A DNA stretch of 56,900 nucleotides from Prorocentrum cordatum (Eukaryota). The stretch covers positions 62,001 to 118,900 of the forward strand of contig CAUYUJ010000056.1 in the NCBI GenBank assembly GCA_963575745.1, written 5' to 3'. Under the pieces are notes generated by a model. It ran no database searches and was not told where the DNA came from. It saw nothing but the letters and a program-made list of their open reading frames with translations. Position numbers and translations under genes: made by a program. Position 1 is the first letter of the stretch, and the number at the start of each line of letters is the position of its first letter. Shown piece after piece: positions 2,190-36,917 of the stretch.

Positions 2190-2830
2190 GCCTATTCGGC
2201 CACGAAGCGTGGGACGGGTGTGCCAAAATGGGGCGGGGCCGCCATGCCGGCGCTGTCGTCGGGGCCTTCGGTGGAACTCCCTCTGGGGCCACGAAGCGTG
2301 GGCAGCCATGCTCACGCCGCCGTTGGAGCCTTCGCTGGAGCTCCAATGAGGCCACGGAAAACATGCGATATGTGTGCCAAAACAGGGCGGGGATGCCATG
2401 CGGGCCCTGTCATCGGGGCCTTCGGTGGAGTTCCCTCTGGTGCCACGACACGTGTGATGGGTGTGCCGAAATGGGGCGGGGGCACCATCCGGGCACTGCC
2501 ACCAAGACCTTTAAATGAGCTCCCAATGGGGCCACGAAGCGCGTAAAAAGGGTGTGCTGGAATGGGGCGGGACCGCCATGCGAACGCAGCTACTGGGGCC
2601 TTCGGTGGGAATTTTCATGAAGCCACGAAACGTGAGAGAGGTGTGCGGACAGGGGGCGGGACCGCCATGCAGGCGCTGCCTCTGGAACCTTCGGTGAGGA
2701 TCCTTATGGGGTCGCGAAGCGTGTGAACGGTGCGCCGACATGGGGCGGGGCCGCCATGCGAATGTAACCGCTGGGGCCTTCAAGGGGCACCCCCGTGGGG
2801 CCACGAAACGGGCGGGTGGCGTGCCAGGAT
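2190..2830 (+). repeat. Degenerate ~90-bp tandem satellite (GGGGCCACGAAGCG...GCCGAAATGGGGCGG...GGGGCCTTCGGTGGAGCTCCC family)
   Basis: ggccacgaa-like anchor recurs at about 2198, 2287, 2350, 2441, 2529, 2621, 2710, 2799; same family at 32720-33220(-) and 46540-47270(+). Confidence 0.8.
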
Positions 2831-2974
2831 GGACACGCGGACGACTGAGGTAGGGATGGGAGGAGGGGAGAAAAGAAACACAATAATAACAATAAAATAA
2901 GAAGGAATATAAGAAGACTAACACTAATACTATTCAGGAGAAGAAAAGAAACATAAACACATTCGAATACTTAG

Positions 2975-3520
2975 AGCACCGCAGATGCGGATAAGAGTGA
3001 GGGGGCGGTGGGGACGTCGGCAGTCTGCGAGACTTTGTAAAAGCCCGCCGCAGGCGCCACAATTTCACAAATCATGCAACGGGCCCGCCGCAAGTGCTTA
3101 ATATTTTCGTTAAACCAATGTGGGTAGATCGCGGGTGGGTCGCGGGTGGGTCCCGGGTGGGTCGCGGGTGGGTCGCTGGGTGGGTCGCTGGTGGGTTGCC
3201 GGGTGGGTTGCCGGGTGGGTCGCGGGTGGGTCGCGGGGTGGGTCGCGGGTGGGTCGCGGGTGGGTCGTGGGGTGGCTCGTGAGGTGGCTCGCGAGGTGGG
3301 TCGCGAGGTGGGTCGCGAGGTGGGTCGCGGGTGGGTCGCGGGTGGGTTGCGGGTGGGTCGCAGGGTGGGTCGCGGGCGGGTCGCGGGTGGGACGACGACA
3401 ACAAACAACAACAACGCAATAACGCAACAACGCAACAAGCAGACTCCTCACCACGGATCCCCACTTCAGCCACGCACCCAGGGACAATGAATGACCGCTC
3501 GGCCCCCTCACTCTGACTAG
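2975..3520 (-). mobile_element. Non-autonomous Helentron/DINE-1-like (HINE) element carrying an 11-bp satellite
   Basis: Perfect 13-bp subterminal inverted repeats AGAGTGAGGGGGC (2994-3006) / GCCCCCTCACTCT (3502-3514); palindrome CCGCAGATGCGG (2979-2990) outside one subTIR; short inner IR (agggac ~3480) near the other; central (GGGTCGCGGGT)n and an AAC microsatellite. Confidence 0.6.
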
Positions 3521-3589
3521 TAATAATATGAGTCATAATGCTAATAATTCAAAAGCACTGTTTTATAACAGTGATTGTGAAGAACGTAA

Positions 3590-15438: not shown

Positions 15439-17849
15439 ACGCTCATGCTGCTCTGCTCTTCTTGAACTTCTTCATGGTGGATGATGGTGAGCCTTCGGGC
15501 TGCGCGCAGACAGCCCCCCTAGGTACTCCCAGCTGGCCTCCACAGGCCCCCCGAGTAGTCCCTGGGGCGCCGAACGCCCAACTGGCGCCGCTGGAGGCGG
15601 CGCCAAAGTGCTGAGACCGCCCCGGGCTACTGGGGGGGGGCCTGTTGAGGCCAGCTGGGACTGCCTGGAGGGGCTGTACAGTGGAGGCCATGCCAGTCCA
15701 CAAGAAACCTTCCACAAGAAGCCCAACCCTGAGACCCCAGGACGTACATGGATGTTTGGTGTGGGAACGTCACGCGTTCCGCTGCAAAACCATAGAAACC
15801 CAAGAAGCCCAGGGCCCAGGGCACCCTGGAGGTGAGCAGGGTGCTTCTTGGCATGGGCCCCCACTGTAGGTCTAGGTGGGGCATGTCCTCCTACAGGCGG
15901 ATGTTGGACGAACCATGAAAAAACATTCCAAAATATTCAAAAAAAAGAAAACATTAGAAACATCGTCCCCAGACTAGTTTTGGACTATTTTTGGATACTC
16001 CTCCTGTCGAGGGGACACGCCCGACTTGACCGTAGGTGCGACCCCACGGCGACTCCGGTCCGCGCGAGGCCGACGAGCGCAGGGCGGCTGCAGTCTCCCG
16101 GCGCGGCCACGGCGTCGAACGCGGCGAGGGCCCTCCGCTCGGCCGCCTCGGACTCCTGCGGGGCGGGAGCTCTTCTCTCGGGGAGACGTAAGACCCGGGT
16201 ACGGGGGACTCGGAAATCCCCGACGAGGTCGTCAAAAAAATGACGAGGCCGAGTCTGCATTTTGACGAGGCCTCCCGCTGCAGACATCCCACGAAACTCC
16301 TCCTCGTCAAAATCCGAGTCGCGGTCGTCAAAAAACGATGGCGAACCCGGGTCCTGGCAAACCCGGGTCTTACGCTCCCCCGATTCTCGACGAGCGCGGC
16401 TTTTGGGCGCCGCGGGGGGACCAAACACAGGCAGGCGCGCAGGACGTTGCTATCGCATCGAGGTCGGCGATCGGGGGACCCCAATGGGCCCGCACCAGAG
16501 GTCACTCCAGCGAAAGTCACTCTTACGTCTGGTCGATTCTTCGGCGGCGCTCGGCCGTCGCCGGCCGTCCGGGCGGCCACGGAGTTGGGGAACGGGCGCA
16601 CGAACGCGCGCGCGCAACGTCCCTGGAGGGGGCGCAAATCATGGCCAGCGGCGCGTGCGCGGCCCAAGAGGGGGCCAGGGACGTATTGAAATAAGAAGGG
16701 GCGCCACGAAATCTGGGGAGATATCATGACCCGCGCCCTGATATCCCCCCCCCTAGTCGTCACCCCCCTCTCGGCCGACCCCGAGTTGGGGAACGGGCGC
16801 ACGAACGCACGCGACGTCCTTGGGGAGAGGCGGGGCGGCCAGCGGCCGGCGCAGAACGGCCGTGGCCGCTCCCTCCCGATCGGCCCGGGGGGCCATGGTA
16901 CTGGGAGCACGAGGGCTGAGCAGGGGCACAGGGGAGGTGCAGGGGCAGGGACTGGGATGCCGGGCAAGAGGCAACGCGTGCAGGGGCTGCAGGGGGGAGG
17001 GAGGAGGGGATGGTGGTGGGGCGAAGGGGGGAGGGGAGAGGGTGGTGGGGGCGGATGGCGGGGTGGGGGAGGGCGGGCGGTTATGTCGGCTGCAGGAGGC
17101 CAGGCGAGTCCGGAGCCCGTTCGCCAGGATGGGCGCCGGTGACTCGTCGGCCCGACGTCCCGCTTCGCGCCTGTGCCCCTCTTGGCCGTGGGGGCGGGGC
17201 TGGGCTGCACCAGCGCCGCGCTCTGGCGCTTCAACCGGCCAAGAAAAAGGCACCCTTCTGCGTTCCATATACATGTAGCTGACAGGGGGAGGAGAAATAA
17301 AGAAAGGGGGACGAGAAAAAGGTGGGAGGATGATCTGGATGAGGAGGAGGAGGAGAGGGGGGAGGAGCAATGAGGGGGAGGAGCAATGAGGGGGAGGAGG
17401 AGGAGGAGGAGGAGGAGGAGGAGGAGGAGGAGGAGGAGGAGCGCTGCCTCCCCTCCATCTCCTCCCCCGCTCCACCTCCCCACCGGCTGCCTGCGTGCCC
17501 CCCACCCCGCGTTCCACTCAAGGTCTCTCCTGCGCTGAAGGGCTCCCTTCTCCCCGGTGCTTCCGAGAGCCCTTCTCCCCTGTGCTTCCGTAGGAGAAGG
17601 GCGGGGAGGAGAGGGAGGCGGCAGGGTTCAGCGGAAATTACCCTGGCGACGTACCCAACCCCTGCGCAAACGCGGGGCGCACATAGGTTAGAACACTTTA
17701 TAAGGGGGGCGATGACGGAGCGAGGGTTACATATGTCTGCAGACGGAATTCGGGAGACTCGCAGGACACTGGCTATAGGACAAGGACTAGATAAAGCTGA
17801 TTAGCTACAATCCCTGAGCATCCTAGCCACTTCGAAAGCGGGGATCTCA

Positions 17850-20804: not shown

Positions 20805-20875
<71 letters not shown>

Positions 20876-21680
20876 GGAGGACGAGGATGTTGATGATCAT
20901 GACGATGATGAGGAGGAGGAGGAGGAAGAGGAGGACGAGAAGGAGGAGGAGGAGGAGGAGGAGGAGGAGGAGGAGGAGGAGGAGGAGGAGGAGGAGCGAG
21001 AGGCGGCCGTCCTGGCCGAAGTTCTTCACCAGCCGCGCATTGCTCGTGCTGTCCGGCGTTCTTTTTTTTCTCTGCGCCGCCCCTCCTGGCCAGGCCAGAG
21101 GAGCGGCGCCGAAGTCGCTCCCATCGGCTTCCAGCCCGCACCCCTTCGGGTTGCACCCGAGGAAGAACCCCAATCTCTGATGGTACGATTTTTCAATCCT
21201 GGCGTGTTTCCCCGATTTCGGGCACCAGGGCCTGCGATCGGACCCCGAGATCATCAAACATGGATCTTGGGGGAACGGTCACCCCCTGTAAAGAAGGTCA
21301 AGACTTCTGGGGCCGCGCATTGAAAACTATATCCTCGGACGCCTGGGAAAAGGAAGGGGGATGAAAATGTTGGAGGAAGGAGAAAATTGAGAAAGGGGGC
21401 GGTGGGAAGGATCAGTGAGGAATGAGAGAGAGAGGAGGAGGAGGAGGAGGAGGAGGAGGAGGAGGAGGAGGAGGAGGAGGAGGAGGAGGAGGAGGAGGAG
21501 GAGGAGGAGGAGGAGGAGGAGGGATCAATGAGGAAGGAGAGAGAGAGAGAGGAGGGAGGAGGAGGAGGAGGAGGAGGAGGAGGAGGAGGAGGAGGAGGAG
21601 GACGAAGAGGAGGAGGAGGAGGGGGAGGAGGAGGAGAGGAAGAGGAGCAGGAGGAGGAGGAGGAGGAGGAGGAGGAGTGC
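20805..21680 (+). repeat. (GAT)n and (GAG)n microsatellites (20805-21000; 21430-21680)
   Basis: Direct reading. Confidence 0.95.
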
Positions 21681-21769
21681 ACGGACCCAAAGAGGAAGAG
21701 ACGAGGGCAAGCGGGCAAGACGCGAGATGAGGGCAAATTGTCAGCACGCGTCCGTCCGCTGGTGCCGAC

Positions 21770-24223
21770 CTACTTCCAGAGCGCTGCTTTGGTAGCGCTC
21801 AACCCTTCAGCTATCGTGGCTGGGGTCGGCGTGGCGTGCTTGTTTTTGTTGCGCAGATTGAAGGTCGGCGCTGTCCGCTGGATCGACCGCTGCAGCGAGA
21901 GGTCGCTGTCAGGATCAGACGGATCGGCGGCGGCGGGGCCCAAGCCCCAATGTGTAAGTGCGTTGCGGAGCGGGGGGGAGTCGGGGGACCAGAGGAGGCT
22001 CAGGAAGCCAGGGCAGGAGAGGTAGTGAGTGAACGAGTCGGGTGCCGCCTGGCATCCAAACACGCACTGCTTCTGCTGGAAGACGCGCATGCGGTGGGTG
22101 GTCGTCCATCCTCCAGCAAGCGTCTTGTAAACCGCCCAGCGCCAGCTGGGGCGGACTCTGCGGAGTGCACTGGTGAGAGCGGACCAGCGTGTCGCGAGCT
22201 CTGGGGCTGAGGGCGGCTGATGGATGCTCCATGCTGCGATGCGCTTCTCGAGAGTGGCTGTGAACGGCGACGAAAAAGAGGCGCGCTGTAGCGCGAGCGC
22301 GAGCGCGCGCTGCACCTTAGGGCGGCGCGGTGGCTCGGCGGCTGGGGACTCGCGGAGCTCGCGGGCAACTGCGCGGTTTGCCGCGGCCACGGCAGCTGCA
22401 GAAAACGGCGCGACGCGATTGCCGGAGGACAGGGCATGGTAGAATTGCACGATGGAAGTGTCCGCTTCCCAGAAGGGCGGAGACCGCTGCCTGGCCCCCC
22501 ACCGATGGAAGGAGTGAGCCGCGCTCTCCTCCCACGCGGTGTCTCGCAGACGCGCGTGGAATGGCCCCCATCCCCCACGCAGCGTGCAGGTTGCAGAACG
22601 AATTGCGGCGGCGACGGCAGAAATCTGAGCAGATCGTGGGACAGGAGGCGGGCACCACTCCGCAATTGCGATGAGATCTACTTTGCGAAACGTGTTCGGC
22701 GGCAGGCTGAGCATGTTGTGGAAGATGTAATGTTCACGGCGAGCAATCTTCAGATCAAGCGGAAAGAATTGTGAGACATAGCTGAGCGTCGAAACGACCG
22801 ATGCGTTGCGCAGGCGAACGGTGGCGCCACTGCCGCTCTCGACAAGCTGGAGAGAACTACCACGCTGCCACCATTTCTGCCCATGGGCGAGCCATTGCGA
22901 GACGACAGAGGCCGAGGGCCCGAGGAAGGCCCCGAGGTACTCGGCTCGCCCCGAAACCGAAAAGCCTCCCCAGGAGGGACAGAGGTCGGCCGGGAGGGCC
23001 TTCGTTCGGGCTGTGGTGGCAGGCGCTGCCTTCGTCCAAAGCGGGACGACGACGCACTTACGAGGCTTGAGCGTGAGGAGCGCGAGCTCTTCAGCAGCGC
23101 AAAATGGCTCAGATGTGCGGCGCAGCGTGTCGATCGAGGACGTGAGGAGGCCAGTGTCGTCCGCGCACACACCGAGGTAGCCCTTGTCGTAGTCAGGAGT
23201 GCCATCGACCGTCTCGACGAAAGAAGCGAGGTGCCGCACCACCCGGTCCATCGCGATCGCCCGCGCTGAGCCGCTCGCAGGACAGCCCTGCGCCGCGCTA
23301 GACGCGATCGGGAACATGAAGTGACGGACACCGTCGATCTTTGGGAAGCTGTTCGGGGCGTGGTACAGCTGGCGGAAGAGACTGAGCAGGCCCCCAGGAA
23401 CTCCGAAACGCCCCAGCGATGCGAAGAGCCAGACCCGTCCGCGCGACGGGAACGCCGCTGCGAAGTCGAAGCTGGTGAAGACGGGCTTGTGCAGCTCGGC
23501 GTCGGGGCGCGCCCCGGCACGGCGCATCTCCGCGTCTAGGTTGACGACGTGCTTGGAAAAAATGCGGCCGACGACGAAGCCCTGCTGTGCGTAATGCGTC
23601 CGCTCTGCCACAGCGGACTTGATGAGGAAGATGGCAGCGCCCGCGATGGCCTTGAAATCCGCGTTCTTGAAGGGGAGCGGGCGAGGGTCCTCTGGCAAGC
23701 GGTCCGTCGTGAGCTCGCCCGTGAGGTTGCCGCCCTTTGGGGGGAAGGCGAAGTCGGAGTCGTTCAGATCGTGGATCAAGTCAGCGTTGGAGCAGAGGTG
23801 CCAAGCGAGGTCCTCGAGCAAAACCAAAGACGCGCCGACGGCGAGCCAGGCGCGGTACGGCAAAAGGTCGGGCCCGGGCGCAGACGGCGCAGCGCGCTGC
23901 AAGAAGCCGCGGATCTGCGCCTTGGTGGGCGCGCCAACGTCGACGGTGGGGAAGAGCGGCATGTGCGAGGCGATGTGCTGCTTGACCTTCGCTTCGTCGA
24001 CCTGCTTGCGCTCGAAGACAGGGCGCCAGTGGTCGCGAAGTGCGTCCACCATCGCACAGCTCTCTCTGGCTACCCCAGGAAGGCCCGAAGGGCCGGTGGT
24101 TCTGATGCCCTGGAAGACAAGACGGCGCTTCCACGGGGCCCAAAGGAGGGCTCTGCGCTGGGACGCACGGGCGATCGTTCGGAGCTTCTCAGGCTCGATG
24201 GCCCCCGGCGTGCCCCGCGGCAA
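21770..24223 (-). CDS. LINE reverse transcriptase and C-terminal Cys/His domain (3' part of disrupted ORF2)
   Basis: Motifs APGPDLLPY, RPLPFKNADFK, QQGFVVGR, DFAAAFPS, QGCPASG, CADD, KPRKC, EYLG, and CVFGC...HYLSC. Confidence 0.9.
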   Translation of the reverse strand: MPRGTPGAIEPEKLRTIARASQRRALLWAPWKRRLVFQGIRTTGPSGLPGVARESCAMVDALRDHWRPVFERKQVDEAKVKQHIASHMPLFPTVDVGAPTKAQIRGFLQRAAPSAPGPDLLPYRAWLAVGASLVLLEDLAWHLCSNADLIHDLNDSDFAFPPKGGNLTGELTTDRLPEDPRPLPFKNADFKAIAGAAIFLIKSAVAERTHYAQQGFVVGRIFSKHVVNLDAEMRRAGARPDAELHKPVFTSFDFAAAFPSRGRVWLFASLGRFGVPGGLLSLFRQLYHAPNSFPKIDGVRHFMFPIASSAAQGCPASGSARAIAMDRVVRHLASFVETVDGTPDYDKGYLGVCADDTGLLTSSIDTLRRTSEPFCAAEELALLTLKPRKCVVVPLWTKAAPATTARTKALPADLCPSWGGFSVSGRAEYLGAFLGPSASVVSQWLAHGQKWWQRGSSLQLVESGSGATVRLRNASVVSTLSYVSQFFPLDLKIARREHYIFHNMLSLPPNTFRKVDLIAIAEWCPPPVPRSAQISAVAAAIRSATCTLRGGWGPFHARLRDTAWEESAAHSFHRWGARQRSPPFWEADTSIVQFYHALSSGNRVAPFSAAAVAAANRAVARELRESPAAEPPRRPKVQRALALALQRASFSSPFTATLEKRIAAWSIHQPPSAPELATRWSALTSALRRVRPSWRWAVYKTLAGGWTTTHRMRVFQQKQCVFGCQAAPDSFTHYLSCPGFLSLLWSPDSPPLRNALTHWGLGPAAADPSDPDSDLSLQRSIQRTAPTFNLRNKNKHATPTPATIAEGLSATKAALWK

Positions 24224-25506
24224 CTGGGCCGCTCTTTGTGCCAGGGAGCGTTGCCGAGCCTCGAAGTCGCTGCGCAGAGAGGATGGCGAACTCGGCGGCG
24301 TCCGAGAGCGCGATGACGCCGTCGTCCAGAACGAAGCACTTTGCGCCGGGCTCGGTGGTGGACTGCAGACGGCGTGCCAGATGGATGTCCTGGCGCCAGA
24401 TCGCTCGCGAAATCGAGCGTGCTGTGATCACCTGGCCGTCGGCGTGGTTTGTTTTGCCGATCTCTCCAGCTGCGCGGCTGATCCAATCATCGCGAACAAG
24501 ACGGGCAGCCTCAACCATGAGGCGCTCGTGCATGCGCCAGCGGTTCGCGATCGGCAGGTGGGTCGGGACGGTGTGGTCGAGCATCTGCTGGAGGTACTTG
24601 GCGAACGAGGGGTCGCGGAAGATGGCTGGGGGGATTAGCCTGCTCCACTGGCGGCGTCCTCGGCTTGATACCGATGGCGTAGGAGACGATTGCGCGGTCG
24701 CTGAGGAGGCGGTCCGACAGGATGGCAGGGTCGTGAGCGATGCGGATGACCCATGTGGGCTCAAGCAAGGCGCGCGACGGCAAGCTGATGAAGACCCGAT
24801 CGATGGCGGACGCAGTGAAACCGGACTTGTTGAAGCGCGTCGGTAGGTCGGACCCGACCTCCAGCATGCCGTCAAACAGGGCCTTCCAGAACGGCTGTTG
24901 CTGCCGAGCGCTGTTGTTCAGCGCGAGACGGGCGCGCTGCGGCTGCGGCTGGAAGAAGCTGTTCGGCGGGCGGCTGGCAGTGTGGAAGTCGCCCAGGGCA
25001 AGGAAGGTGCGGTGCACGCAGTTGGGGTCCGCCCACGTGCGGTGTTGGTGCCGGGCACGTTGAATGCGATCACGACCCCTGGCGTCGATCTCGTGATGAT
25101 GAACGTTCATGATGACGAGGGCGTTGCAGGTGACTGCGTTGGTGACGGCGACGATCTGGGCGCGGCCTTTGACGAGCTCCTCGTGGGCGAGGAGCGGGAG
25201 CTGGGACGGCTGCAGCTGTTCCAGCTGCGCGCGCGTGAGCCACGGGACGAGGGTGGCCGCGCCGCCCGTGCCAGCGCGCGCGTCATCGGCGGACTCGTCG
25301 ACGAACTGCGAAAAGAAGAGCTAGCACGGGTAAGGCTGGGTGTCGACCCACGTGCGGAGAAGCTTCTCCGAGCCATGGACCTCCTGTAGGACAATGACAG
25401 CGCGCTGGCGCACGTACTGCTGCAGAGCTACTTGTTTGCGACGGCGCATCGGGCGCTTGTGGCACATGAGCGCGCGGGCGTCCCAGGTGATGAACGAGCA
25501 GGGCAT
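24189..25506 (-). pseudogene. LINE APE-type endonuclease domain split across several frames
   Basis: ITWDARAL (TWN motif), VLQEVH, NVH, LGDFH (GDFN), IDRVF and LSDR (SDH) in ORFs 25321-25935, 24511-25110, 24189-24875. Confidence 0.85.
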
Positions 25507-25543
25507 GTTGTCCTCGACTGGCTTCCACGGTGCCCAGGGGTGG

Positions 25544-27423
25544 CTAAACCCGCCACGTTGCCTCAGCCGTGTCCGCGAAGAGCGCCTGGAAAGGAGTAAG
25601 GACGGCACTGCGACCGATGTCGTGGAAGTGAGCGAGCTCGAAGGCCTTCTCGTTCCACTCCAAGATGGCCGGGCCGGCTTGGCCCTTGACGTCCAGGCGC
25701 ACGACGGGCATGGCGTTGCAGTGGATCTCGCCCTTGGTGCGATAGGCCTTCCAAGCCTTTTGCGGATATCGATGCTGGAGAAGTTGGAGGAGTTCCTTGC
25801 ACTGGATCTCGGTGCGGATCTGCTTGGGGGCTTTGTCGGGGTTGAAGTAGATGGCTGTCGGCGCGCCCGTGGTGTCCGTTGATGTGAATCGCTTCCACTT
25901 CCCTGCGGCGTCACGAAGGGCTCGAGAGAGAGCAAGAGCCCGAGGAACTGCGAGGGCGCGATCTCCTCTCACTTGAAGAATGAAGCAGCGTGCAGGCTCA
26001 TCTTCATATAGCTCGACGGCGTCCGTGTCCAGGTTGGCAGACGCGATCCACTCATGCAGGTCGTTGAGAAGCACGCCAGGCGCGATGGGGCGTTGGGCTC
26101 CGATGGTGAAGATCGTCGGGTCGATCGCGCGGTCCCAGTCGGCGAGCCTGGCGAGGTCCGCGATCGGCGCTTGGGCCTCGGCGAGCGCGAGCGTCTCGCG
26201 CATCTGGTCGATCTGCTGCCACGTCCCTTGCTGGTCTGCAGCTTGTCGGTCCAGTTCGCGGCGGGTTCTAGCGACGACATCATGAAGGGCATCGGCTCGG
26301 CGTTCAGTGGCTTGTACTTGCTGTGTGAGAAGTTGACGAAGGCTTTCTCTGGATTGATGAAGTAGCTGATTGGCTTGCGCTTGGAAGGTGCTTGCTGCAT
26401 GTGCGCCTTGTGATTACATGAGTCTTGTAATGATTTGTCCAGGTCTGGGTCCAGCCCAGGGGGGCGAACAGGCTCAGGCGCAGGGCGTGGCTTGCTCGGC
26501 TTCAGCATGATGCGCGGCGGCGGCTCCTCCAGCGGTTGGTGGTGGTCCATGGCCGCGTGCCGCAGCAGCGTGAGCATATGTGGCTGCGCCTCCTTCGCGC
26601 CAAGGATCTGCTGCTCCTGCCAATGGATCGGGACGAGGTGCTACCGCGGGCTGCTGTGCATGAGGTTCAGTCCAGATACCATCGCGATATTGTTGAGGAG
26701 CAGCGTCGGCGGCAGCGCGTGGAGGATCGCGCGGTTCTTCTTCTCCAGTGCCCATGGCGAAGGTGGGCGTCTGCTGCGACTGGCGGGCTGGAGATCTGCC
26801 TGTTCGAGCTTCCTGTCCCGATGCTCTCCCCGAGCGTGACCCGGCTGGCTGCGAAGGGAAACCGTGGTCACCGTGGGTCGCCGCGGTATCGCGTGCAGCT
26901 GATGCACGGAAACCTTTATCTTCGCGCTCATGGGGTCCTCGAGGTGCGCGGTCAGATTCGCGACGTGGTCTTTCGCGGCGACGGTCTTTTCTTCGGCGGC
27001 TGACTGAGGGGGCTCCGCGTGAGGTAGATCGCTCTTCACTGGGGGACATGGCTGCGAATCGACGGGCGCTGAGCTGTTATGTGCTGCACCACTTACCAAC
27101 CTGAACCCGATGCCACTGCGTAGCTGCTGATGGCGCTGCTGCTGGGGAACGACAACGTCGACGCCCAGCGGGATATGGACCCGGAGCTCGGCGACGGAAG
27201 TCGGGCTGAGGCCCAGCTGTCGCCCGGAGACGGAGGTCTGGCCGATGGGCCGGGCAATGTGGAGGACAGCTTGCAATGCCAAGACTATGGGCAGGAATGG
27301 GCGGCCGCAAGCCCCTGATAGTAGCGGCAGGAAGCGCGAGTGCCAGCTCGCCCCTGGTTGTGGCTGGGAAATGACGGGGTCTGTCCTCGGCTCAGAGGTC
27401 TCCGCGCGGCCGCAAGGCGACAT
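25544..27423 (-). pseudogene. LINE ORF1 region, frameshifted
   Basis: Sits between the SL relic and ORF2; 25544-26203 reads as a globular domain (IYFNPDKAPKQIRTEIQCKEL); upstream pieces are in other frames. Confidence 0.6.
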
Positions 27424-27428
27424 GGTGA

Positions 27429-27450
27429 CTTGAGCCGAAATGGCTGCGGA
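27429..27450 (-). other. Dinoflagellate spliced-leader (DinoSL) relic at the LINE 5' end
   Basis: Minus strand reads TCCGCAGCCATTTCGGCTCAAG versus DinoSL DCCGTAGCCATTTTGGCTCAAG (20/22, both differences T->C); followed by TCACC-ATG (27423). Confidence 0.9.
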
Positions 27451-28027
27451 AGGAGGAGGTGGGGGAGGAAGAGATAGAGGAGGAAGGAGAAGGGGGGGGA
27501 TGAGGCCCCGTTGATGATGATGATGAGGAGGAGGAGGAAGGGGAAGAAGCCACTGGCCCAGGCGGGCTAGCCGTCGTCGTCGGGGCGGGCCAGGGTCGGT
27601 CGTCGTTCCACCCTCCCCCCCCCCCTTCGCGCGGCCTTCCCTTGGGCTGGGGCTCGCGCGCCGCGGCGGGCCATCGCCGCCGCCGCGTCGGCGCCCCCGC
27701 GGCGAGGAGGCGCAGCCGCTGCGTTTCAGGCCTGGCGGCCACGAGGCCTCGCGAGGGGCCTGAGCCTGCCTGGCACCGCAGGCAGCGCAGCAAGAGGGCA
27801 GCAGCGCGCGTGCTGCTCAGAGTGCTGGTTGCCGCCTCGACCTTGGCCGAGCACCACAGCACCATGGCACCTGAGCAGCCCGCTGGCGCTGCGCCTAGTG
27901 CTGGCCAGAGGAAGAAGTCCTCGGGCCCAGCCGTCGGGGAGAGCCCCTGGCCGCGGCGAGCGCAGCGTGCGCGCAGCGCCCAGCGCAACCAGCAGCACCA
28001 GACCAGCACTGGATAAAATCAGCAGCA

Positions 28028-33285: not shown

Positions 33286-34095
33286 TTTTGTTTGGATTGC
33301 GGGGCTGAGGGAGCATGAAGCCTGTCAGCGGAGAAGTGGCACACACCTAGACAAACAAAAACGTAGCTGAACCCCAAACAATGTAAGAAAGCATCGACTG
33401 AGGAAAACAATACTAGTGAGAATATTCGGCACGGGCCCCAAGGATTCAAATCCAGACAATGCGAAGGGACCCCCGCAACGAAGCGGACGGGACGCGTTGA
33501 ACCGAAGCGCTGAATCCAGAACTCCCTCCCGAATCCTTTCTTGAACCCCCAATATCCACAGCAGGCAGCTTGGCAGGAGGAGTGGGAAGGAGGGTGAAGG
33601 AAGAACGAACTGCAGGAGCAGTGACATGACAATGGTTCAGCGCAGCTCCAAGAAATCCGCGCGGACCGCCACAAGTTTGTGTTTTTTTGCTGCTGATTCT
33701 TCGATGAGAGGAGGAGGAGGAGGAGGAGGAGGAGGAGGAGGAGGAGAAGGAGGAGGAGGAGGAGGAGGAGGACGAGGAGGAGGAGGAGGAAGAGGAGGAG
33801 AAGGAGCAGGAGCAGCAGTGGACTGAGGAGAAGGAGCAGGAGGAGGAGGAGGAATAGGAGGGGAGGAGGAATGACGAGGAAGGGAGAGGAATGATAAGTG
33901 ACGCAGAAGAGCGACACGAGTGCATCGGATTTCTCGGGCTGGTGCTGGATCCCCCCCCCTGGCGCGCGGAGAGCGCCGGGGTCGGTGCCGAGGGCGCCGC
34001 GAGGGGGGGGCCCGGTGCCGTCCCAAGACATCTCCGCGGGCCTCCGAAAGCCTCACCAGCACTCTGGGAGTACATACGTAGATGGTCTAACAAGT

Positions 34096-35689: not shown

Positions 35690-36917
<1,228 letters not shown>

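Follow-up and report, generated by a model that had tools for sequence, protein, structure and literature searches.

A LINE of Prorocentrum cordatum that begins with a spliced-leader relic, and leaders at the 5' ends of distant LINE families

A stretch of 56,900 nucleotides of Prorocentrum cordatum DNA (GenBank assembly GCA_963575745.1, contig CAUYUJ010000056.1, positions 62,001 to 118,900 of the forward strand; hereafter 'the window', in whose own numbering its features are given) carries on the minus strand a long interspersed nuclear element (LINE) whose first nucleotides are a relic of DinoSL, the spliced leader of dinoflagellates. Judged from the DNA, this copy was very probably made from a LINE RNA capped with the spliced leader (SL), a reading supported by the leader's occurrence at the same place in distant LINE families of metagenome contigs. 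Here we describe the leader, its counterparts in these relatives, the life cycle that such a 5' end would allow and the other ways in which it might have arisen.

The leader at the 5' end of the element

Read on the minus strand, positions 27450-27429 are TCCGCAGCCATTTCGGCTCAAG, which agrees with the canonical DinoSL, DCCGTAGCCATTTTGGCTCAAG as given in the available portions of PMC7245778 and PMC5585692, at 20 of 22 positions, both mismatches being T>C changes (positions 5 and 14). This was the sole site in the 56.9-kb window in a 21-mer search allowing up to three mismatches, and a leader match appeared in none of 100 dinucleotide-preserving shuffles of the window; a chance match was among the readings rejected. 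The leader sits on the coding strand, ends exactly at the last base of the SL exon and is followed by TCACC (27428-27424) and an ATG (27423-27421). A near-complete DinoSL on the same strand, 5 nt 5' of an ATG, is the arrangement of a DinoSL-relic retrocopy. The window copy has one leader with no stacked relic behind it, tandem relics cut after nt 7 being the mark of repeated retroposition in that class; a single leader does not exclude the copy from it. Two AG dinucleotides are kept, an internal one (nt 6-7, as GCAG) and a terminal one (nt 21-22).

The 100 nt 5' of the leader (27451-27550) are 86% pyrimidine and rich in TCC, and in a BLAST search against the window they matched only other microsatellites of the window, at 71-76%, together with one 36-nt stretch at 89%. 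This flank lies outside the element and could serve as a polypyrimidine tract for the AG acceptors of the leader. The original prediction for this DNA had described a 20/22 DinoSL match at the 5' boundary, 5 nt from an ATG and with a microsatellite immediately beyond, all of which is borne out by the sequence and the searches; the strand of the element, which is the minus strand, had not been stated there.

Leaders in distant LINE families

A search with an alignment of the protein encoded by the second open reading frame (ORF2) and its database relatives brought up 26 metagenome loci that code for relatives at 24-36% identity, two of which (L022 and L025) are 99% identical with their flanks included and count as one. 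Altogether 110,520 nt of these loci were scanned for the leader on both strands. The 21-mer search, with up to six mismatches, returned five matches (one in L006, three in L007 and one in L020), all of them on the LINE strand and none on the opposite strand; the 12-nt 3' part of the leader, with at most one mismatch, likewise matched on the LINE strand every time and never on the other. Leader matches with two mismatches or fewer numbered three in the 110.5 kb, against about 1e-4 expected by arithmetic.

Two loci show a full leader ahead of a LINE. In L007 a CAT/CAG-rich flank gives way to a perfect 22-nt leader (104-125), which is followed by a relic, CCATTTTGGCTCAAG (126-140), equal to the leader cut after nt 7; beyond the relic lie 127 nt, then ORF1 (268-1335), then an ORF2 with endonuclease and reverse transcriptase (RT) domains that is open up to the contig end; the element is apparently intact. 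L020 has a (TA)n flank, a leader matching at 20 of 21 positions (113-133) and two degenerate relic-like pieces, and downstream of these ORF1 (251-1429) and an ORF2 with the endonuclease, again open up to the contig end.

The 5' end is visible in ten elements, namely nine distinct loci and the window copy. Outside the tally stand the other 16 of the 26 loci (L001-L003, L005, L006 for its first element, L009-L011, L013, L015, L016, L018, L019, L021, L023 and L024), in which the contig breaks off within ORF2 or leaves fewer than about 130 nt ahead of ORF1. A full leader is present in three of the ten (window, L007 and L020), the 3' part of the leader lies at the boundary in four (L004, L012, L008 and L017) and no leader is seen in three (L014, L022/L025 and L026). 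The original prediction had named full-length copies that lack the leader, or that extend upstream with a shared non-SL 5' untranslated region (UTR), as the observation that would speak against it; across the ten elements, nine of them distant relatives, the outcome was divided, with the leader or its 3' part in seven and neither in the remaining three. For L022 the similarity to the 5' UTR of L004 starts 15-23 nt downstream of the L004 leader remnant, which fits a slight 5' truncation.

The partial leaders are GGCTCAAG at 25-32 in L004, (TTC)GGCTCAAG exactly at the end of a 10-nt minisatellite in L012, GTTTTGGGCTCAAG at the 5' boundary of L008 and a gapped TCCGT...GGCTCAAG at 60-77 in L017. 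The L012 element has both ORFs intact, with an ORF1 of 660 amino acids and an ORF2 99.7% identical to protein P0007. Across the loci the 8-mer GGCTCAAG occurs 15 times on the LINE strand vs 4 times on the opposite strand (about 1.6 and 2.1 expected), the highest number on the LINE strand in 200 shuffles being 6. In the 5' zones of the seven loci without a full leader (5,141 nt) there were four matches (L004, L008, L012 and L017) vs 0.08 expected.

The sequences upstream of the leader differ between the loci that bear it: TCC-rich in the window, CAT/CAG-rich in L007, (TA)n in L020 and the 10-nt minisatellite in L012. L020 and L022 have TA/TG repeats on the 5' side, and TA/TG-rich tails are found in L002, which was not placed in a family, and in L003, which belongs to the family of L004 by its ORF1. 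Taken with the TCC-rich sequence on both sides of the window element, this suggests that such elements insert into simple repeats similar to those of their own tails.

Three loci gave observations of their own. In L012 the minisatellite, (TGGCCTCAGA)n at 160-296, adjoins the partial leader, and its last unit has a few letters in common with the remnant, a pattern suggestive of a junction at microhomology. In L017 the leader-like string stands 115 nt before an ATG whose ORF (192-1379) reaches the endonuclease about 95 codons in, and a long ORF1 like the 660-amino-acid one of the related L012 is missing; speculatively, this is an ORF2-only form that arose through trans-splicing at an acceptor between ORF1 and ORF2. 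In L006 a leader matching at 21 of 22 positions begins 152 nt past the end of a LINE ORF2, shares its strand and has an ATG at once after it. The 238-amino-acid ORF behind it, open to the contig end, matches no ORF1 and no Pfam family, and for this reason the leader was left out of the tally of LINE 5' ends; leader and ORF (2791-3526 together) may be a second retrocopy, of a LINE or of a host gene, within the tail of the first.

Origin of the element and proposed life cycle

The claim that the LINE was copied from an SL-capped RNA proved well supported, given a leader that ends at the exact exon end, lies on the coding strand and is directly followed by sequence of codon-type composition. In the frame of ORF1, from the ATG at 27423 to about 26500, G+C content is lowest at second codon positions (GC2, 0.40-0.54) and highest at third positions (GC3, about 0.74), which is the pattern of the proven coding parts of the element; the 366 nt that precede the leader lack it. 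In the window, L007, L020 and L006 alike, the leader ends at the last base of the exon with no SL intron after it, which is a signature of splicing: the nucleotides that follow are TC (window), CC (L007), CC (L020) and AT (L006), and never GT.

Such a 5' end suggests the following cycle. The host would add the SL to LINE RNA by trans-splicing, as on other dinoflagellate nuclear mRNAs, and the LINE's own reverse transcriptase would copy the capped RNA up to its very 5' end. Trans-splicing, and not a ribozyme or an obligatory internal promoter, would probably be what cuts the LINE RNA from longer transcripts and caps it. Each new copy would bring with it the two AG acceptors of its relic (nt 6-7 and nt 21-22), and co-transcription at any site would allow it to be spliced anew. 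Splicing at the internal AG would leave a relic of 15 nt, as in L007, the leader then being joined to CCATTTCGG..., and splicing at the terminal AG would join the leader to TCACCATG and regenerate the same 5' end, an event that neither DNA nor cDNA would record.

Were the internal AG used every time, a lineage would grow by 15 nt per cycle. The single leaders of the window, L012 and L004 suggest frequent use of the terminal AG, a transcription start inside the relic, or descent through few cycles from master copies. As to the terminal AG, which the original prediction had put forward as the next trans-splice acceptor, it is present and its use is possible; for recycled dinoflagellate mRNAs, however, the documented acceptor is the internal AG (nt 6-7). 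The available portion of Jaeckisch 2011 (PMC3229502, citing Slamovits and Keeling) describes relics truncated after nt 7 at an AG, and an SL that with its two AG acceptor sites 'favours its own presence'; the acceptor idea is partly in print already.

The leader of L007 with its relic cut after nt 7 is the published mark of a second round, in which a genomic leader is transcribed from farther upstream, trans-spliced at its internal AG and retroposed once more (PMC3229502). With the acceptor at element nt 6-7, the parent transcript began outside the element, upstream of its own nt 6; this is the best support for release from read-through transcripts, and it comes from a distant relative. We regard a life cycle that runs on read-through transcription, with no internal promoter, as close to evenly balanced, if a little on the doubtful side.

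Alternative explanations

In an alternative that we hold to be unlikely, though the least so of those considered, the relic again derives from an SL-capped LINE RNA and, once in DNA, acts as or together with an internal promoter, transcription starting in or just behind the relic and trans-splicing taking place at a downstream AG; read-through transcription would then not be required. The TTT(T/G) motif of relics has been proposed as a dinoflagellate core promoter, and according to the available portions of the same papers TTTT/TTTG is preferentially kept in relics and few genes have several relics (Song et al.; PMC5585692, PMC6050394). In keeping with this, the window copy, L012 and L004 have a single leader, or part of one, and no stacked relics. 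The stacked relic of L007, however, requires a parent transcript from upstream of element nt 6, and L020 too has relic-like repeats behind its leader. The motif in the window is TTTC, which would also speak against a promoter, but carries little weight in a copy that is dead.

It is very improbable that the structure is a chimera, in which the leader and the first ~0.9 kb are a retroposed host gene with a 5'-truncated LINE nested in or adjacent behind it. The first ~300 codons (27423 to about 26520) do match no LINE ORF1 of the loci, and the only homologues of this 5' part are the proteins P0010 and P0011, the latter with a C-terminal half unlike the element. Against this, the coding-type composition continues unbroken between the ATG and the region of ORF1 homology, the 5' kb is itself repeated in the public DNA run described below (~82-85% likeness), and other LINE families have a long ORF1 (660 amino acids in L012) and a leader directly before ORF1; moreover, a captured host segment would still have moved as part of the LINE RNA.

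LINE reverse transcriptases can switch template at RNA 5' ends, as in the U6-L1 chimeras of mammals, and the leader could by this property be a hitch-hiker acquired when the enzyme passed from the end of the LINE RNA to a second template, either an SL RNA or a different capped mRNA at its 5' end. We consider this even less credible than a chimera: a switch onto the SL RNA would bring the SL intron along, yet the leader of the window, like those of L007, L020 and L006, stops with the AAG that ends the exon, and the L007 relic cut after nt 7 bears a signature of splicing and not of template switching. Site-specific LINEs that insert into SL RNA genes are found in other trans-splicing lineages (SLACS and CZAR of trypanosomatids, NeSL-1 of nematodes), and a leader that is the target exon of such an element is the most remote of these explanations, since the 3' side is (TCC)n with no SL intron, the window gives no Rfam match to an RNA gene, and the loci have wholly different flanks upstream. 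Both template switching and SL-gene insertion were rejected on the stop at the exon end, the (TCC)n 3' flank, the lack of an Rfam match and the unrelated flanks.

Several points weigh against our preferred reading, a LINE copied from its own SL-capped RNA and released by host trans-splicing. The initial TCC of the window leader equals the repeat unit of the flank and may be part of the TCC repeat, leaving an unambiguous leader of 19 nt (17/19). The partial matches in the loci are short (8-13 nt) and the 5' zones were drawn after they had been seen, so the strand asymmetry is the unbiased figure. Three of the ten visible 5' ends are without a leader, for which 5' truncation is possible but assumed. 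Within the family of the window element the leader is seen on one copy, the comparison of 5' ends covering distant families, and the dinoflagellate origin of the metagenome contigs is indicated by the leader alone. Finally, the trans-splicing of the element, the acceptor used and the start of transcription are all deduced from DNA.

Anatomy of the window copy

The element is a dicistronic non-LTR (long terminal repeat) retrotransposon, a LINE, with an endonuclease of the apurinic/apyrimidinic (AP) type. Its features are collected in Table 1. From the leader to the end of the 3' UTR it measures about 5.77 kb, tail excluded, and the ATG of ORF2 lies 38 nt beyond the stop of ORF1.

Table 1. Features of the LINE in the window, listed from 5' to 3' on the element's strand.
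Feature	Position	Strand	Basis or remark
5' flank, pyrimidine/TCC-rich simple sequence, outside the element	27451..27550	minus	sequence composition
DinoSL relic, TCCGCAGCCATTTCGGCTCAAG	27429..27450	minus	20/22 match to canonical DinoSL
Spacer TCACC, 5 nt, from leader to start codon	27424..27428	minus	sequence
ORF1, disrupted; ATG 27423, stop TAG 25544-25546; ~626 amino acids if intact	25544..27423	minus	translation, codon-position GC, tblastn
ORF1 premature TAG	26641-26643	minus	P0011 reads Q there
ORF1 frameshift	~26400-26500	minus	
ORF1 region conserved with other LINE ORF1s	26338-25553	minus	tblastn with ORF1 of L007, L020 and L004
ORF2, disrupted; ATG 25506, stop TAG 21770-21772; ~1245 amino acids if intact	21770..25506	minus	
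AP-type endonuclease	25497-24625	minus	62-63% identity to endonuclease of P0002
ORF2 premature TAG, within the endonuclease	25321-25323	minus	
ORF2 frameshifts	near 24635 and 24275	minus	
RT domain	23692-23045	minus	RVT_1
C-terminal Cys/His motif, CVFGCQAAPDSFTHYLSC	22066-22013	minus	common to relatives
3' UTR, 91 nt	21679..21769	minus	
(TCC)n simple repeat, either a tail or the target microsatellite; (GAG)n when read on the plus strand; two blocks with ~80 units	21432..21678	minus	Tandem Repeats Finder: period 3, 80 copies, 89% matches

The reverse transcriptase was recognised by the Pfam family RVT_1 on residues 246-461 of P0001 (E 7.2e-8, 32.8 bits, cut-off 29.6), and in a PDB search the RT of the relative L007 resembled R2 and LINE-1 ORF2p chains. 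The endonuclease is placed in its class through a homologue: the window translation (P0009, with the stop as X) gave no Pfam match at E<=0.05, and it is 62-63% identical over 245-264 residues to P0002, whose endonuclease passes Pfam (29.3 bits vs a cut-off of 24.5). No LTRs were found, a BLAST of the element against the window giving microsatellite matches only. A check for a target-site duplication met TCC-rich simple sequence on both flanks, so that the bounds of any duplication are ambiguous. ORF1 shows no DNA methyltransferase (DNMT) and no other Pfam domain.

The original prediction of a full-length LINE holds as regards 5' completeness and fails as regards intactness: the window copy is complete at its 5' end and dead, its frames being broken by two premature TAGs and by three or more frameshifts. 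Its 3' boundary had been correctly placed near 21680, where the ORF2 stop (21770-21772) and the 91-nt 3' UTR are followed by the (TCC)n tail (21678-21432). P0011, 59% identical, aligns in the frame of ORF1 over 26847-26548 and has Q at the TAG of 26641-26643. Five of five contigs of public DNA run X1 have G in place of A at 26643, so this stop is private to the window copy; as the codon is CAG-like in relatives, the premature stop arose by a C>T change. Some contigs of the same run have indels at 24635 and 24278-24282, coinciding with the ORF2 frameshifts. All four stops of the element, the genuine ones (21770-21772 and 25544-25546) as well as the premature ones (25321-25323 and 26641-26643), are TAG. 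Two similar blocks make up the array 3' of the LINE. Each closes with (TC)n and a ...CATT...GATCC string, an arrangement that a duplicated tail would give.

Copy number and surroundings

Neither blastn nor tblastn found another copy of the element in the window. In public DNA run X1, aligned at a threshold of at least 80% likeness, 912 contig pieces align to the element at 80-100%: 61 at 99% or above, 104 at 95-99%, 281 at 90-95% and 466 below 90%. The individual matches listed are 13 among 929 pieces and 12 among 332 loose ends, and among these listed matches the pieces also cover the 5' kb of the element, at ~82-85% likeness. The family is therefore multi-copy and diverged in the organism of run X1. 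Summed contig depth was 8-25 over 26466-27261 vs 30-240 over 21690-26465; the lower depth at the 5' end is what 5' truncation would give, a weak hint at most since contig depth cannot rank parts of an element. A contig with a depth of 17 has its end 31-32 nt away from 27415/27416, on a side that is ambiguous, and nothing was drawn from it. Among public DNA runs, one contains a share of 0.19 of the element's words and two of the same study contain next to nothing.

Rfam, applied to the whole window at gathering score, gave no match to an RNA gene or to any ribozyme that its models recognise. Outside the LINE the window has 32 ORFs of at least 247 amino acids, in which Pfam found no convincing family (one low-complexity match lay 0.1 bit over the cut-off); no upstream host gene able to supply read-through was identified among these 32 ORFs. 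A scan for sigma-70 promoters and terminators near the 5' end returned no sites, with models that are not applicable to a dinoflagellate-type host. The window looks gene-poor and repeat-rich, with a G+C content of 0.51-0.70 in 2-kb steps, and contains many GAG/GAT (CTC/ATC) trinucleotide arrays (20805-20996, 21432-21677, 33709-33799, 35783-36046 and 17336-17440).

Relatives of the encoded proteins

The ORF2 protein has seven database matches, of which P0002 is close (68%) and the others are 24-30% identical; alignment of ORF2 against viral contigs and genome contigs gave no relatives. For ORF1, searches were aimed at proteins of other copies that read in frame through the leader. The N-terminal 260-269 amino acids have no relative in metagenome contigs or among proteins of 147-471 amino acids, and residues 1-80 have none among proteins of 30-146 amino acids. 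An all-against-all HMMER search gave only two homologues of this part, P0010 (an identical fragment of 84 amino acids) and P0011 (59%), and both stop short of the N-terminus. P0011 resembles the element over 100 residues and is then unlike it over residues 106-184, a C-terminal segment that may be akin to a UBX-type fold. P0011 may be a host gene with a captured piece of the LINE, or the reverse.

Significance

A LINE must recreate its own 5' end in each generation, and the known ways of doing so are internal promoters (L1, jockey) and a promoter combined with a ribozyme (R2, L1Tc). A LINE that begins with the leader points to a third way, in which host trans-splicing would both define and cap the RNA. 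Leader-relic retroposition is known; what is new here is that the RNA recycled by it would be that of the retroelement, across several distant LINE families that include apparently intact members. These apparently intact, full-length and leader-tagged LINEs indicate that SL-capped RNA is copied by LINE machinery right up to the 5' end, and they offer a concrete candidate for the machinery behind thousands of leader-tagged dinoflagellate retrogenes.

It is conceivable, if somewhat doubtful, that dinoflagellate LINEs in general are promoter-less riders on host transcription that are also the source, in trans, of the leader-tagged retrogenes (~1/5 of genes) and are prone to 5' transduction; if true, 5' transduction as a side effect would account for 5' UTRs and ORF1 extensions that are unrelated from one family to the next. 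In practice, leader-primed cDNA libraries, such as the DinoSL-primed full-length IsoSeq libraries available for Symbiodinium species (PMC8045281), should catch active LINE transcripts, and the number of stacked relics could count serial cycles of retrotransposition. The concept follows fairly directly from general trans-splicing and the known relic retrogenes, and would be of moderate surprise to specialists.

Comparison with known systems

SLACS, CZAR and NeSL-1 likewise bring a leader and a LINE side by side; in the element described here, unlike in those, the flanks are simple repeats and no remainder of an SL gene is present. Closer in strategy are L1Tc/ingi of trypanosomatids and R2, LINEs which define their own RNA 5' end out of longer transcripts in hosts with co-transcription or trans-splicing, R2 being released from an rRNA co-transcript by its ribozyme. 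In contrast, the window shows no ribozyme to the Rfam models, and the 5' end of the element is a host leader. L1Tc has the internal promoter Pr77, a self-cleaving ribozyme of the hepatitis delta virus (HDV) type and unspliced transcripts, as the available portions of PMC1874656 and PMC3185411 relate.

Among dinoflagellate elements, SymbioLINE of Symbiodinium (de Mendoza et al. 2018, PMC5890265) shares with ours an ORF1 before an ORF2 that bears the RT, a wealth of subfamilies and numerous dead copies, and differs in its ORF1, that of the window element showing no DNMT or other Pfam domain; in the main text of that paper neither 'spliced leader' nor 'DinoSL' occurs. A full-text literature search, which left supplements and subscription papers such as Slamovits and Keeling 2008 aside, found no description of dinoflagellate LINEs that start with DinoSL. 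For Schistosoma mansoni it has been suggested that retrotransposon genes which contain the SL may have arisen from elements that were trans-spliced and then retro-transcribed, with assembly chimeras as the alternative (PMC5832876). That case concerns another phylum and another leader and, in the portion of the paper available, is a passing remark with no analysis of 5' boundaries and no stacking of relics.

The nearest parallel is found in the leader-relic retrogenes of dinoflagellates. Leader relics lie upstream of about one fifth of dinoflagellate genes, by the available accounts in PMC7245778, PMC5585692, PMC6050394 and PMC3229502. As to what made them, the accessible text of Song 2017 reports the Gene Ontology term 'RNA-dependent DNA replication' as enriched in both bouts of retroposition, which was read as retrotransposon activity (PMC5585692), and that of Song 2018 gives the mediator of retrogene formation as unknown and favours LTR copia elements (PMC6050394). 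The retrogenes, as set out in parts of PMC5585692, and the LINEs described here have in common a genomic 22-nt leader that immediately precedes, on the same strand, a coding sequence free of introns, together with tandem relics that were cut after nt 7 (here in L007) and older relics that are more degenerate (here in L020). They differ in the RNA that was retroposed, which here would be the retroelement's own, so that the leader starts the LINE and is inherited with it.

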